A stretch of 64,000 bases of DNA from a virus (Duplodnaviria > Caudoviricetes): positions 1 to 64,000 of IMG/VR virus record IMGVR_UViG_3300028888_000084; one strand, given 5' to 3'. Below, in pieces: positions 31,512-47,054 of this stretch (position 1 is its first letter; every line of letters begins with the position of its first letter). Below the pieces are notes generated by a model, which made no database searches, was not told the DNA's origin, and was given only the letters and a program-made list of their open reading frames with translations. A program made the position numbers and the translations under genes.

Positions 31512-31589
31512 TAGCCTATCCCCTCCTTTTATTCTCTTGTTTATAATAAAATTATAACATATATAATTTTAGCAGTCAATAATAAATTA

Positions 31590-31619
31590 TAGTATGCCCT
31601 GTTTTCGCAGGGCATACTA
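31590..31619 (-). terminator. hairpin, probable terminator
   Basis: TAGTATGCCCTG / CAGGGCATACTA. Confidence 0.65.
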
Positions 31620-31629
31620 GGTAGTGCTA

Positions 31630-31950
31630 TCATTCATCTGACTCTTCTACTTCCTCGTTAAAAGGCATATGATATCGTTTGTTTATATTCTTTCTTGCAG
31701 TTTCCATAAGTTCGTCATATTCAGGTGTTCCGTATTTTAAGCTATTAACGATATCAAAATGGCAATGTTGACAAAGTATCATACTGTCTTTCAAGGTTGT
31801 AGTGTGACTAATGCTATATGGAATGATGTGGTGAAGTGTTAAATCTTTAATGTCGAATTTTTCCATGCACAACCAACAATATTTGCCATATTTTGATAGC
31901 AATTCTTGTTTTACGACCTTTTTTCCGCCATCACGTCTTGTTTTTGACAT
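31630..31950 (-). CDS. HNH endonuclease
   Basis: CWLC...TLHHIIP...LCQHCH. Confidence 0.8.
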   Translation of the reverse strand: MSKTRRDGGKKVVKQELLSKYGKYCWLCMEKFDIKDLTLHHIIPYSISHTTTLKDSMILCQHCHFDIVNSLKYGTPEYDELMETARKNINKRYHMPFNEEVEESDE

Positions 31951-32173
31951 AAATACCTCCAAAATACGTTTTCCATAAAAACCTTATTTTATGGTGATTT
32001 TTAAGGCTTCAAACACACTGTTCATGCGGGTTTCAAAATTTTCGACCACCACTTTTCGGATTTTTTTACGTTTTTGTGCGATTTCATACATTTTTCATGT
32101 TTTTTTGTCCTTCCTTTCAAAAGAGATTGGAATTTATATCTTATAAAGATATATGGCGACACTAACCGATAGG

Positions 32174-32881
32174 TTAGTTAGTGCTCAATGTTATGTAATT
32201 TAATGGATTTTTAGCAATTCCATCTTTATGTATTTCAAAGTGCAAATGATTTCCAGTAGCATTTCCCGTTCTTCCCATATGACCTATTAAATCGCCTTTA
32301 TTTACTTCTTGATTTAAATCGATACATATATCTTGAAGATGTGCGTATAAAGTCTTATATCCATCTGGATGTTCTATTACTATGTGATTACCATAGCTTA
32401 CATTGGAATATACTTTCTTTATACAAGTGCCATCATATGCTGCATAAATTTCAGTTCCTGCAGAATTATATATATCAACAGCAGGATGTGATCTTTTAAA
32501 TCCTTGTGATTTTTTACCAACACAAGGTGTAAGAAAATTTATATCATTTGCAACTTCATTTGTTTCCTCTTCTTCTTTTGTAACTTGTGGTATTTCTCTT
32601 TCTACACTAGATCTACTTGTAACAGTAGATGTATCTTTTATTCTGTTTATTACTGGTTCTGTATGTTCTTTGCTGTCAAATGTATTTTCTTGTGTAATAA
32701 TTTCATTGCTATTTTCTTGTATTTCTGCCTTTTCTTCTGAATTTACTTCTTGTGGTATCACAAATTCAGTATCCTTTTCGTCTTGTTTAATATCTTCATA
32801 TTTCATGTCTGGTATAAAAATTAATTTCATGGTTATCACAGAAATAATAAGAATATTAGTTAGTAATTTAATTGTTTTCAA
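32174..32881 (-). CDS. secreted or membrane-anchored M23 peptidase
   Basis: N-terminal hydrophobic segment; H.AVD, YGN, YAHL, G.TG.ATG.HLHFE; TTG start. Confidence 0.9.
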   Translation of the reverse strand: MKTIKLLTNILIISVITMKLIFIPDMKYEDIKQDEKDTEFVIPQEVNSEEKAEIQENSNEIITQENTFDSKEHTEPVINRIKDTSTVTSRSSVEREIPQVTKEEEETNEVANDINFLTPCVGKKSQGFKRSHPAVDIYNSAGTEIYAAYDGTCIKKVYSNVSYGNHIVIEHPDGYKTLYAHLQDICIDLNQEVNKGDLIGHMGRTGNATGNHLHFEIHKDGIAKNPLNYITLSTN

Positions 32882-32898
32882 AATACATTCACCTCAAT

Positions 32899-32937
32899 TT
32901 ATTTTGCTGGCATATTTTCAATAGCTTCTCCCCACAT
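32899..32937 (-). CDS. micro-ORF MWGEAIENMPAK (copy 2)
   Basis: GAGGTG RBS, ATG start, TAA stop. Confidence 0.55.
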   Translation of the reverse strand: MWGEAIENMPAK

Positions 32938-32954
32938 AATACATTCACCTCTGT

Positions 32955-32993
32955 TTATTTTGCTGGCATATTTTCAATAGCTTCTCCCCACAC
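32955..32993 (-). CDS. micro-ORF MWGEAIENMPAK (copy 1)
   Basis: AGGGGTG RBS, GTG start, TAA stop. Confidence 0.55.
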   Translation of the reverse strand: MWGEAIENMPAK

Positions 32994-33023
32994 AATACAT
33001 TCACCCCTAATTAAAGATAATAA

Positions 33024-33062
33024 CTAATCCAAGATAACTTCTTCAAATCCATCATGCCACAT
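33024..33062 (-). CDS. micro-ORF MWHDGFEEVILD
   Basis: AAAGGAGG RBS, ATG start, TAG stop. Confidence 0.6.
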   Translation of the reverse strand: MWHDGFEEVILD

Positions 33063-33084
33063 AATGATTCCTCCTTTTATATAT

Positions 33085-33120
33085 TTAATAAGCAATGCCA
33101 TCAAATATTGGATGCCACAC
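33085..33120 (-). CDS. micro-ORF MWHPIFDGIAY
   Basis: AAAGGAGTG RBS, GTG start, TAA stop. Confidence 0.6.
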   Translation of the reverse strand: MWHPIFDGIAY

Positions 33121-33140
33121 GATAATCACTCCTTTATGTA

Positions 33141-33165
33141 TTTAAGTGGCATTTCGCCACTTAAA
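33141..33165 (-). other. hairpin upstream of the micro-ORF array
   Basis: TTTAAGTGGC / GCCACTTAAA; no U-run follows on the minus strand. Confidence 0.6.
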
Positions 33166-33169
33166 CCGT

Positions 33170-33676
33170 TTATTGTTCTGCATCGTAATTATCGTCATCT
33201 TCATCATCTTCAGCATTTTCTGCTATAGATATTTTTTTGTCTATATTACAGTCATCACTTATACATAAAAGTAAATCACCATCTTTTGTAATAACAGATA
33301 TTTGATTTAAGTTATTAAGCGAATCAATTTCACACCACGATACATATACCAAAGTTGGTTCAATATTTTCATCCTCATATTGGACTTCTATTGCTACTAT
33401 GTCATTATATTGTGTTATTCTATCAAAAGCATTATATTCTCCATAAAGTCCATTATTTATACTTATATTAAAAGATTTATCTATCATCATTGTCAAAGAA
33501 TCGCATGAATCATAAATCACTTGATTTTCATTTCCATATGAGTAATTAGGATTTATATTTGATAGAAAAAAGTGTTTTATATACCTTATCGGAATAACCA
33601 ATTCTTCTACGTTTTCAAAAACCAAATTGATATTTTTAATTTTAGCATCTTGTAGTTTTTTTAAATCACTCAACAT
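33170..33676 (-). CDS. acidic hypothetical protein
   Basis: 168 aa; LVFEN.E...DRI..YNDIVAI. Confidence 0.75.
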   Translation of the reverse strand: MLSDLKKLQDAKIKNINLVFENVEELVIPIRYIKHFFLSNINPNYSYGNENQVIYDSCDSLTMMIDKSFNISINNGLYGEYNAFDRITQYNDIVAIEVQYEDENIEPTLVYVSWCEIDSLNNLNQISVITKDGDLLLCISDDCNIDKKISIAENAEDDEDDDNYDAEQ

Positions 33677-33971
33677 CTGTCACCTCCGTAACATCAATTA
33701 CATTATCATCTAAAGTTACATTGGCATCAACATTATCATCTTTTTGTTCAAAAACAGTGTCAAACTGATAGTTGTCTTGAATTTGTGATAAATTGATGTC
33801 GTTTTCTTTACGATATTTTTCATACCAGTTGTCCAATATCTTTTGTATTGAAGTACCAAATGTAGCAAAATTAGAGCAAGACAAACATGAAACAGTATTA
33901 TATTGCGTACAAGTTTTACACTTATCATAGCTATCATAAAGATTTTTAATATCATCTTTAGTTTCGTTCAT
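33666..33971 (-). CDS. hypothetical protein with Cys cluster
   Basis: CKTC...CLSC; start moved to MNETK after a GGAGG RBS. Confidence 0.7.
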   Translation of the reverse strand: MNETKDDIKNLYDSYDKCKTCTQYNTVSCLSCSNFATFGTSIQKILDNWYEKYRKENDINLSQIQDNYQFDTVFEQKDDNVDANVTLDDNVIDVTEVTDVE

Positions 33972-33996: not shown

Positions 33997-34025
33997 ATTA
34001 TATCATAAATTATACTGATAGTCAA
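33997..34025 (-). promoter_or_regulatory. sigmaA-type promoter
   Basis: TTGACT-17 bp-TATAAT with extended -10 TG. Confidence 0.75.
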
Positions 34026-45036: not shown

Positions 45037-45948
45037 CTATTCTTTTACAAAACCAGATAAAAATAAATCGTGTGAAGAATTTGTATCTCCAACTTCTACG
45101 TACTTAAATTCTACATCTGCAAATCCAAATCCTAAATTATTATTAGGAGTAACTGTAGGATTATCAATAATCATTACTAACCACGAATTACCATTCCAGT
45201 CTTTTATTATTTTAGGTTTACGATTAGTTAAAAAATCTAAAATACCTTTTCTATATTCGGCTTCATCGTGCCTATTCAATGTGCTATTATATAAATCATC
45301 TTCTAATATAATAGTTGCTTTTAAAGATGATTTATAATAATTGGTTATACCATTTGCAACCACTATAGGATATTTTTTACCCATAGGTTCATATATGCCA
45401 GTTATATTTTTTTGTTCGCCATTTCCAAATGATACACCAGCTGCGAATTTATAAATCGTATCTGTATCACATATAAAAACACCGTCAAATTGTGACATTA
45501 TAGAATTTATCATATATTGTGATTCTACGTTATTTTCAAAGTCTATAACTGGAACTATTGCGTACTCATATTCAGTGTTAGCCTCCGACATATAATCAGT
45601 AACATTAAATTTTAATGAAGTGTTAGGATCCAATGTGTATTCAGCCAACAACACCCATTCATCAGTACCTTTTTTTCTTTTTTTTAATCTTACACCTTGC
45701 ATTTGATCTAATAAATAATCTATGTTACCAGCATTTAAACTACCATCAAATCCAGCGGACATTATAGTAAGTAAATTCCACGTCGTGTCATAGTTTGGTG
45801 TATATGGTTTATCTATTCCACTTTCTATATATAATTTATCAAATATACCATTCATAACTTCTACAGTATTGATTTCATTTCTATATGTTCCCATGTGTTC
45901 AAAAGCAACTTCATCTAAAGGAAAGTTATATCCAACGATACTTATCAT
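45037..45948 (-). CDS. tail or baseplate protein (distal-tail-like)
   Basis: Y.YAIVPV, KYP, K.K.IKDWNG, F.YVEVG; position. Confidence 0.6.
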   Translation of the reverse strand: MISIVGYNFPLDEVAFEHMGTYRNEINTVEVMNGIFDKLYIESGIDKPYTPNYDTTWNLLTIMSAGFDGSLNAGNIDYLLDQMQGVRLKKRKKGTDEWVLLAEYTLDPNTSLKFNVTDYMSEANTEYEYAIVPVIDFENNVESQYMINSIMSQFDGVFICDTDTIYKFAAGVSFGNGEQKNITGIYEPMGKKYPIVVANGITNYYKSSLKATIILEDDLYNSTLNRHDEAEYRKGILDFLTNRKPKIIKDWNGNSWLVMIIDNPTVTPNNNLGFGFADVEFKYVEVGDTNSSHDLFLSGFVKE

Positions 45949-47054
45949 TATGACGCACCCCCTATATTTTCAATTCTAATATCCATCATGTCATTTCCAC
46001 AAATCATTTGTATTACCAAGTAATCTGTTTCTAAAGGTTTAGGTATATCATTACTATATATTCTATAATAATATATTCCATCAGAATCAAATCTGTTTAA
46101 TAATTCAATATGACATAAATCTTCTTCTGTTAAATCATCATAAAATTCACGATAATACAAACCTGTTCTATCACCTAATTGACAAATACAAGTATTATTG
46201 TTAAAATCACGACCTGTTATATAAACTGTATAATTTTCATTAAAAGATAATTGATCATCCCAAATAGCACCATTATTTCGTAAATCAGCTGCTGTAACAC
46301 TACCTTCTGTTAGATATTCAATATCGCCGTTAGTGGATTCACCTTCCAAATCATGAATTTGACTTTCTATATATATAGTACCATCTTTACAGTTATTTGT
46401 CAACTTAATTGCAGATGTAAATTGTGAAGATCCATATTTTACATTAAATGTTTCTTTATTGCTATACACAACTGTGTTTTGTGAAGTATATCCTACTGCT
46501 TGAATTTTATATGTCGTATCGTCTTCTAATCCAGTAAAAGTGTAATTCAAATACGTTGGTGGCGGAATAGTGTCATAAACATATATTCTATTTTCACCAT
46601 CTATTGATTTTATCAAATTATCATATCTATCGTATAATAAAAATCCATAAGAACTTAATAATTCACCTTGCAATTGTGTATATGTAGCTTTGAAATTATA
46701 AGAAGATGCTTCTACGATTCCACCTGCTGGTATATTTGTAAAAACAATAACTGGCGTAGTATAACACCAAAATTGTATAGAATTACTAGCCATACTATAA
46801 TTATCATCTTCGTCAACCGTTTGAATACTTGCAACATAATAATTACCATTAGTTAGTGAATTAGCTGGTAATACATATTTTGGTGATGTAGAAGAGATTG
46901 TATTACTATATACTACTGCACCTGTATCGTTTAATTTGACAGTCAACTTGCTGCCAACAAACGGATCGCCGCCATTGGCAACAAAGTTAAATGTCATAGA
47001 TTTAGTGGCATCAAATGCAGCCACCGAAGATAATACTGGTTTTATTAATGCCAC
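45948..47054 (-). CDS. virion structural protein with FN3/Ig-like domains
   Basis: L.NG.YY and GLEDDTTYKI motifs. Confidence 0.6.
   Translation of the reverse strand: MALIKPVLSSVAAFDATKSMTFNFVANGGDPFVGSKLTVKLNDTGAVVYSNTISSTSPKYVLPANSLTNGNYYVASIQTVDEDDNYSMASNSIQFWCYTTPVIVFTNIPAGGIVEASSYNFKATYTQLQGELLSSYGFLLYDRYDNLIKSIDGENRIYVYDTIPPPTYLNYTFTGLEDDTTYKIQAVGYTSQNTVVYSNKETFNVKYGSSQFTSAIKLTNNCKDGTIYIESQIHDLEGESTNGDIEYLTEGSVTAADLRNNGAIWDDQLSFNENYTVYITGRDFNNNTCICQLGDRTGLYYREFYDDLTEEDLCHIELLNRFDSDGIYYYRIYSNDIPKPLETDYLVIQMICGNDMMDIRIENIGGAS

Follow-up and report, generated by a model that had tools for sequence, protein, structure and literature searches.

A tandem array of Met-Trp mini-ORFs between orf168 and an M23 peptidase gene in an uncultured phage genome

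Tryptophan-sensing leader peptides include trpL and tnaC. A third, the rtpLP leader ORF of the Bacillus subtilis anti-TRAP operon, reportedly has about 10 codons with three consecutive Trp codons, and its stop is said to lie so near the downstream Shine-Dalgarno sequence (SD) that the terminating ribosome affects initiation of the next gene. Ribosomes can also act on the message itself: RNase J1 of B. subtilis is blocked by ribosomes bound to a strong SD (hbs, PMC5737220; yrzI/spyTA, PMC12067863). The characterised leaderless communication peptides (LCPs), SIP of the SIP-RopB system of Streptococcus pyogenes (MWLLLLFL) and LCPss of S. salivarius (MWLILLFL), belong to a group of peptides that are mostly 8-10 aa long, with a few longer exceptions, and very hydrophobic (GRAVY ~2.9). 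Their genes adjoin that of a RopB-clan HTH-TPR receptor and are under a regulated promoter of their own; in phages none has been reported (PMC10518010). The bar minigenes of phage lambda are toxic two-codon ORFs (experimental ones have 3-8 codons), which act by peptidyl-tRNA drop-off in Pth-limited cells (PMC2490762).

The array and its operon

The locus described here comes from a 99,360-bp IMG/VR virus genome, that of an uncultured phage with 29% GC which is ~84% complete. The window, the whole stretch of DNA that was analysed, is the first 64 kb of this record. Essentially all genes in the record are on the minus strand, and the array lies on that strand in an intergenic gap of ~290 bases between orf168 and an M23 peptidase gene. 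An initial annotation had placed four micro-ORFs in this gap, and reading the minus strand from 33175 to 32870 showed its coordinates, sequences and translations to be correct letter for letter. The features of the region, in their order on the minus strand, are listed below.

33997-34025, minus strand: sigma-A-type promoter TTGACT-17-TATAAT with extended TG; 11/12 matches, the best in the region
33666-33971, minus strand: orf101 (MNETKDD...), the operon's first gene; SD GGGGAGGAGGGG, ATG at 33971, without a family match
33170-33676, minus strand: orf168, 168 aa, phrog_2349, no assigned function; its stop is 4 nt before the hairpin
33141-33165, minus strand: hairpin UUUAAGUGGC-GAAAU-GCCACUUAAA; perfect 10-bp stem (11-bp in the RNA fold), 5-nt loop (3-nt in the fold)
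33085-33135, minus strand: unit A; SD AAAGGAGTG at 33135-33127, 6-nt spacer, GTG at 33120, MWHPIFDGIAY, TAA at 33087-85
33024-33077, minus strand: unit B; SD AAAGGAGG at 33077-33070, 7-nt spacer, ATG at 33062, MWHDGFEEVILD, TAG at 33026-24
32955-33008, minus strand: unit C1; SD AGGGGTG at 33008-33002, 8-nt spacer AATGTATT, GTG at 32993, MWGEAIENMPAK, TAA at 32957-55
32899-32951, minus strand: unit C2; SD GAGGTG at 32951-32946, 8-nt spacer AATGTATT, ATG at 32937, MWGEAIENMPAK, TAA at 32901-899
32882-33005, minus strand: 56-bp tandem repeat (Tandem Repeats Finder), 2.2 copies, 95% matches; made up of C1, C2 and a partial third copy that is the M23 initiation region
32174-32895, minus strand: M23 (LytM-type) metallopeptidase gene; SD GAGGTG at 32895-90, TTG start at 32881, Peptidase_M23 PF01551 (E = 3.7e-29)
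31984-32098, minus strand: mini-ORF MKNV (4 codons, 32098-32084) and a 35-aa ORF (32091-31984), in the same operon downstream of M23
31578-31950, minus strand: HNH endonuclease gene (31950-31630) and intrinsic terminator with an 11-bp stem (31618-31591) and a T-rich tail to 31578

The array is mid-operon, in the replication module near the genes for polymerase III alpha and the primase-helicase, since the promoter, orf101 and orf168 come before it and the M23 gene, the HNH gene and the terminator come after it. The promoter at 34025-33997 directly follows the stop of DNA polymerase III alpha and is likely the start of the array's operon, and the terminator at 31618-31578 is likely its end. The next promoter comes after this terminator, where a DNA methyltransferase gene has a promoter of its own. 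The free-standing HNH endonuclease gene closes the operon. A 119-aa ORF listed mechanically from a TTG (34025-33666) is more likely the 101-aa gene that begins at ATG 33971 behind GGGGAGGAGGGG; what was listed as its TTG start, at 34025, is the -35 element of the near-consensus promoter. Downstream of the M23 gene, a small hairpin separates it from the 4-codon mini-ORF MKNV, which has the SD AAAGGAAGGA and a TGA that overlaps the ATG of the 35-aa basic ORF (MYEIAQKRKK...). This 35-aa ORF is without a good SD of its own, and the pair makes a second tiny upstream ORF in the operon, apparently coupled to the next frame.

Each of the four units is led by an SD, has 11-12 codons and begins with Met-Trp. 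Each unit carries a single TGG, as its second codon and 56 nt upstream of the next start. Going from A through B, C1 and C2 to M23, each stop and the start that follows it are 22, 30, 17 and 17 nt apart; the stop of C2 precedes the M23 SD by 3 nt and the M23 TTG by 17 nt. Signal sequences had been noted as absent, and peptides of 11-12 aa cannot carry them. The M23 product carries a hydrophobic anchor at its N terminus and both zinc motifs, HxxxD and HxH.

The SDs had been described as strong and well spaced, and they are gene-like. Their duplex energies with the anti-SD (A -12.4, B -12.2, C1 -11.1 and C2 -11.7 kcal/mol) fall within the range of the phage's real genes, at the 25th-49th percentile of 87 of them (gene median -12.4). 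Start-like triplets of the background (ATG, GTG or TTG on the coding strand) have a median of -2.4, and 4% of them reach -9 kcal/mol. The predicted opening energies of the four initiation regions are also like those of real genes. Both strands of the whole 99-kb genome together hold 10 sites that combine SD, start and TGG, and 4 of the 10 are in the array. Trp follows the start codon in none of 98 long ORFs; the 13.9 kb of the 99-kb genome outside long ORFs contain no further cluster of SD-led micro-ORFs, and no Met-Trp array was found in ~84 other loci or in the two nearest phage genomes. The array is a real, non-random arrangement that grows by duplication. On the strength of their start sites, the four units are probably translated. 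The genome scans showed no genome-wide habit of MW or SD-led micro-ORFs.

The hairpin at 33165-33141 is not a canonical sense terminator, because an A-rich sequence follows it on the coding strand and not a U-run; it is possibly an RNA 3'-end or processing hairpin. It is responsible for the fold z of -2.4 in the 5' half of the leader. The whole leader folds unremarkably (z = -1.0) and no Rfam family was found for the leader or gap, and on these grounds a structured RNA or riboswitch was rejected. An antisense RNA ending at the hairpin was rejected in the same way for want of a convincing plus-strand promoter. Pairing of a hairpin arm with the start of unit B is within the chance rate of such repeats, since six comparable 10-11-nt inverted pairs occur in 600 nt. 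The search for a promoter inside the gap gave one weak 9/12 match only, and promoter-like hits in the region numbered 12 against 15.4 in shuffles.

Comparison with described short ORFs

The array is like hbs, yrzI/spyTA and STAB-SD (PMC5737220, PMC12067863) in that a strong SD and a short ORF stand in a polycistronic mRNA downstream of a structured element. It also resembles the coupled mini-cistrons and SD stabilisers of Firmicutes in having a stop within ~20 nt of the next start, and in that the effect is proposed to come from ribosome occupancy and not from the product. Coupled cistrons have an upstream stop within ~20-30 nt of the next start on one transcript, and the gaps in the array are of this size within a single promoter/terminator frame. 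Unlike the hbs and yrzI stabilisers, the array has four successive units rather than one, all of them Met-Trp. The SDs of hbs, yrzI and STAB-SD are exceptionally strong, whereas those of the array, at -11.1 to -12.4 kcal/mol, are at or below the phage gene median. In those stabilisers the SD also stands near a native or processed 5' end and has a measured effect on stability.

With the LCPs, the array shares ultrashort SD-led ORFs without leader or processing, the Met-Trp start and an origin in Firmicutes. The peptides have 11, 12 and 12 aa, where LCPs mostly have 8-10 aa with a few longer exceptions, and they are not hydrophobic, with GRAVY values of -0.45 to 0.42 and a net charge of -1.4 to -4.4. 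No receptor gene adjoins them; the neighbours are orf168 (phrog_2349), M23, HNH and the methyltransferase. Searches with TIGR01716 (Rgg C-terminal) and PF01381 (HTH_3) found nothing in the 99-kb record, which is ~84% complete, and a receptor for the array peptides may be encoded by the host. LCP genes have their own promoter with a receptor operator upstream of the -35, whereas the array is mid-operon behind the promoter at 34025. Its four copies in that position are also unlike the LCP-receptor pairs.

The array has in common with rtpLP and trpL a short SD-led ORF whose stop is beside the SD of the regulated gene (C2 stop at 32901-32899, 3 nt before the M23 SD). Those leaders, however, have two or more control Trp codons, positioned so that a stalled ribosome alters downstream structure or access to the SD, whereas each unit has a single TGG at codon 2 and no alternative structure stands out. 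The target of rtpLP is a tryptophan-regulatory gene, and that of the array is a cell-wall peptidase. The lambda bar minigenes, like the units, are phage-borne SD-led ORFs far below gene size with an effect independent of a folded product, but with 11-12 codons the units are outside the drop-off regime.

Divergence of the units and the M23 start

All units align in register in MAFFT, as paralogues. Their shared features are therefore retained from one ancestor and do not represent four independent events, and C1 and C2 count once. The C1/C2 pair had been attributed to a recent 56-bp duplication of RBS and ORF, which the tandem repeat bears out, and growth by tandem duplication of such units supports the accompanying description of the array as an expandable cassette.

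The units have diverged unevenly. Across the SD, spacer and codons 1-2, types A, B and C are identical pairwise at 16/21, 13/21 and 15/21 positions, and across the remaining ORF at 14/30, 10/30 and 13/33, where chance identity is 0.29. The difference between head and body gives a one-sided Fisher p of 0.02-0.04 per pair, the pairs not being independent of one another. Outside SD, start and TGG the bodies are at chance nucleotide identity (~29%), the exceptions being an invariant TTGA at codons 6-7 and, in A and B, a CAT as the third codon. The ORF length of 11-12 codons is about the random stop distance at the genome's composition (mean 10.6-10.9 codons), so length shows no sign of selection; the lengths of the three types are within one codon of each other (p ~0.02). 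The initiation signals are thus conserved over a diverged body. Because SD, start codon and TGG are kept while the bodies are at chance and the lengths random, these signals look to be under selection; the comparison covers three paralogous types, all from a single genome.

For selection on the peptide sequence there is a hint at most. All 4 differences between C1 and C2 fall within the 20 nt of flank and none within the 36-nt body that encodes the peptide, a placement with p = 0.013, or 0.046 under a 3-substitution history, and this pattern hints at constraint on the body itself. The hydrophobic-acidic pair seen earlier at positions 6-7 is present in all three types, but it is the same thing as the invariant TTGA island, for which there are at least three readings: in-frame F/I followed by D/E, a TGA that closes a nested GTG frame, and a -35-like TTGAxx. 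RTGTGG contains a second start, and the nested GTG frame gives MASNI and MGRSY. The initial annotation had also suggested effector or inhibitor peptides; with bodies at chance identity apart from the CAT and TTGA, and lengths equal to the random stop distance, we found no evidence of these.

The 14-mer GAGGTGAATGTATT is identical before the C2 and M23 starts, in agreement with the earlier remark that the peptidase gene uses the cassette's initiation region; GGGGTGAATGTATT precedes the start of C1. M23 starts 4 codons later than most homologues (MIFILKFAK...; ~50% identity, full length), at a position matching their Leu5. The in-frame codons upstream of its TTG now serve as SD and spacer and are closed by a TGA. 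Recombination within the array would have put a cassette-type initiation region onto M23, replacing the gene's own start. The protein database holds eight strain variants of M23, 91-100% identical, all with the same start position, and the 100%-identical variant (JGI copy) differs in its first letter only, a literal L from the TTG start. Among the homologues P0002-P0008, P0006 also starts at the late position of the phage M23.

Relatives of the locus were searched for widely. The locus had no blastn match among GenBank phages, and tblastn of M23 and orf168 against the same phages gave distant hits only. IMG/VR scans with M23, orf168 and an alignment of the M23 clade found nothing close, degenerate DNA patterns for each of the three peptide types had 0 hits in IMG/VR, and scans of metagenomes and GTDB genomes returned generic M23 genes only, ≤49% identical over the catalytic domain. 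There are no relatives of orf168 beyond its own cluster at E ≤ 1e-10, and an antisense 51-aa ORF that overlies the array is absent from the protein database. L003 and L004, the two phages closest in polymerase III alpha (62-65% aa identity), have neither the M23 gene nor the MW array, and because the nearest phages are without this segment, M23 plus array may be part of a mobile or exchangeable module. An origin of the gap from a decayed gene was rejected, as tblastx and blastn against the other loci, the two related genomes and the rest of the genome gave nothing significant.

Possible roles of the array

Tentatively, we favour a reading in which the array consists of locally amplified, translated mini-cistrons that act in cis, the last one coupled to the weak M23 start. 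Ribosomes would load after the orf168 hairpin at four successive SD/start sites of gene strength and translate 11-12 codons at each. This would keep an otherwise untranslated stretch of 290 nt of mRNA covered by ribosomes and could protect it against 5' exonuclease, endonuclease and Rho in Firmicutes. Termination at C2 would then hand ribosomes to the weak TTG of the membrane-anchored M23. With the end of C2 so close to the SD and TTG of M23, output of the peptidase is proposed to depend either on reinitiation after termination or on terminating ribosomes that occupy the SD. This reading draws on the gene-like SD and opening energies, on initiation signals kept over diverged bodies, on ORF lengths without a mark of selection, on the strong promoter at 34025-33997 as against a weak match in the gap, and on a leader without an Rfam family or unusual fold. 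The stop-to-start gaps and the GAGGTGAATGTATT common to C2 and M23 suit coupling, and the blocking of RNase J1 in B. subtilis is a precedent. Translation of the units, its weight relative to the peptide and the direction of the effect on M23 are inferences. Action in cis does not predict the conserved TGG, the CAT in A and B or the TTGA at codons 6-7, nor does it account for four units instead of a short intergenic spacer. Two further points against it are the ordinary strength of the SDs, in contrast to the exceptional ones of the hbs and yrzI stabilisers, and the lack of any C1/C2 difference in the body, which hints at constraint there. A sensor of Trp charging, of the rtpLP kind, would be a sub-variant of this cis-acting account. 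The Trp-sensitive uORFs suggested in the initial annotation suit the geometry, with a step of 3 nt from the C2 stop to the M23 SD; each unit, however, offers a single Trp codon and the gene that follows has no relation to tryptophan, and we give the idea only a slight chance.

The array could instead be a neutral by-product, in which slippage or unequal recombination copied a segment of RBS and gene head, the copies are maybe translated, nothing is selected and Met-Trp is inherited from the first copy. We think this somewhat unlikely. The in-register alignment of all units as paralogues, a newest event that is a plain 56-bp tandem duplication with 95% identity, the chance-level bodies and the random stop distances all agree with it, as does the loss of the first four M23 codons relative to most homologues, with the gene now on a cassette SD and TTG as expected from recombination within the array. 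The array is also unique to this phage genome among all collections searched. Neutral decay should, however, erode initiation signals and bodies alike, and the old units A and B keep SD, spacing and start at gene strength while their bodies are randomised. All four units start with ATG or GTG, whereas the cassette of M23 has TTG, and the TGG is invariant; moreover, the phage is tightly packed, with 13.9 kb of 99 kb outside long ORFs, and has no other such cluster. The conserved TGG and TTGA could also belong to a nucleic-acid element, with RTGTGG(C) and TTGA at ~56-58-bp spacing serving as operator- or iteron-like protein sites, as internal promoters or as pairing partners of the GCCAC hairpin arm, and with the reading frames incidental. 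The hairpin palindrome AAGTGGC...GCCACTT has a half-site similar to the ATGTGGC in unit B and the GTGTGGC in unit A, a stretch of 11 nt in unit B shows 91% complementarity to the 3' arm of the hairpin, and the locus is in the replication module, near polymerase III alpha and primase-helicase. TTGA, the only invariant island of the bodies, is -35-like in its three forms (TTGATG, TTGAAG and TTGAAA), and TATAAA and TATTAT follow it at 17-18 nt in units A and B. But promoter-like hits are fewer than in shuffles, the complementarity to the hairpin is within chance, the leader neither folds unusually nor matches Rfam, and the motifs do not recur elsewhere in the genome. A gene-strength SD at the correct distance from the start in every unit is left unexplained, and we regard such an element as improbable.

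A last reading takes the peptides themselves as the active product, a diversifying family of leaderless 11-12-aa Met-Trp micro-peptides acting in trans as mimics or antagonists of host signals, or as binders or inhibitors of a host protein or of the adjacent zinc peptidase. It draws on W2, which is invariant in all units compared with Trp second in 0/98 long ORFs, on the H3 common to A and B, on the hydrophobic-acidic pair of all three types and on the C1/C2 differences, which avoid the body (p = 0.013). SIP and LCPss also begin with Met-Trp and are made without processing (PMC10518010), and SpyA, of 17 aa, is functional in B. subtilis (PMC12067863). Against this, the three peptides have almost nothing in common beyond MW and their bodies are at chance nucleotide identity. 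They are acidic and not hydrophobic, with GRAVY values of 0.42, -0.11 and -0.45 as against 2.85-2.94 for SIP and LCPss, and LCP-receptor pairs are reported absent from phages (PMC10518010). The 99-kb record has no Rgg/RopB C-terminal domain and no HTH_3 domain, the degenerate patterns of all three types have no match in IMG/VR, and the units are without a promoter of their own. On this evidence a role in trans is unlikely; in the form of a tandemly expanding leaderless fMet-Trp family that works in the infected cell, by mimicking or antagonising host Met-Trp signals or by modulating the co-transcribed zinc peptidase, we consider it quite unlikely.

If the array acts in cis, it would be a clear natural case in which duplication of a single initiation cassette gave a phage a ribosome relay of several steps, and would show a gene, M23, whose own start was replaced by the cassette. 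It would then bear on translational coupling, mRNA protection and the turnover of gene starts in phages of Firmicutes. If the peptides act in trans, leaderless Met-Trp peptide biology would extend from bacteria to phages, and the array would give the first phage case of an LCP-like peptide cassette, one without a receptor of its own. Whichever reading holds, the claims rest on one metagenomic genome. For annotation the array is a caution as well: gene callers miss such frames.

Units A and B both start with Met-Trp-His (33120-33112 and 33062-33054), an X-X-His head which, if deformylated, would give an amino-terminal Cu/Ni-binding (ATCUN) pattern. Unit C is without His; the two heads adjoin a zinc peptidase as operon neighbour. 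A 3-codon MWH frame (ATGTGGCAT-TAA, 47056-47045, minus strand) lies behind GGGGTGAGG and overlaps the GTG start at 47054 of a 368-aa gene (45948-47054). Its 9-mer also occurs where units A and B start, with no further copy on the coding strand, and is compatible with chance in 2 x 99 kb.
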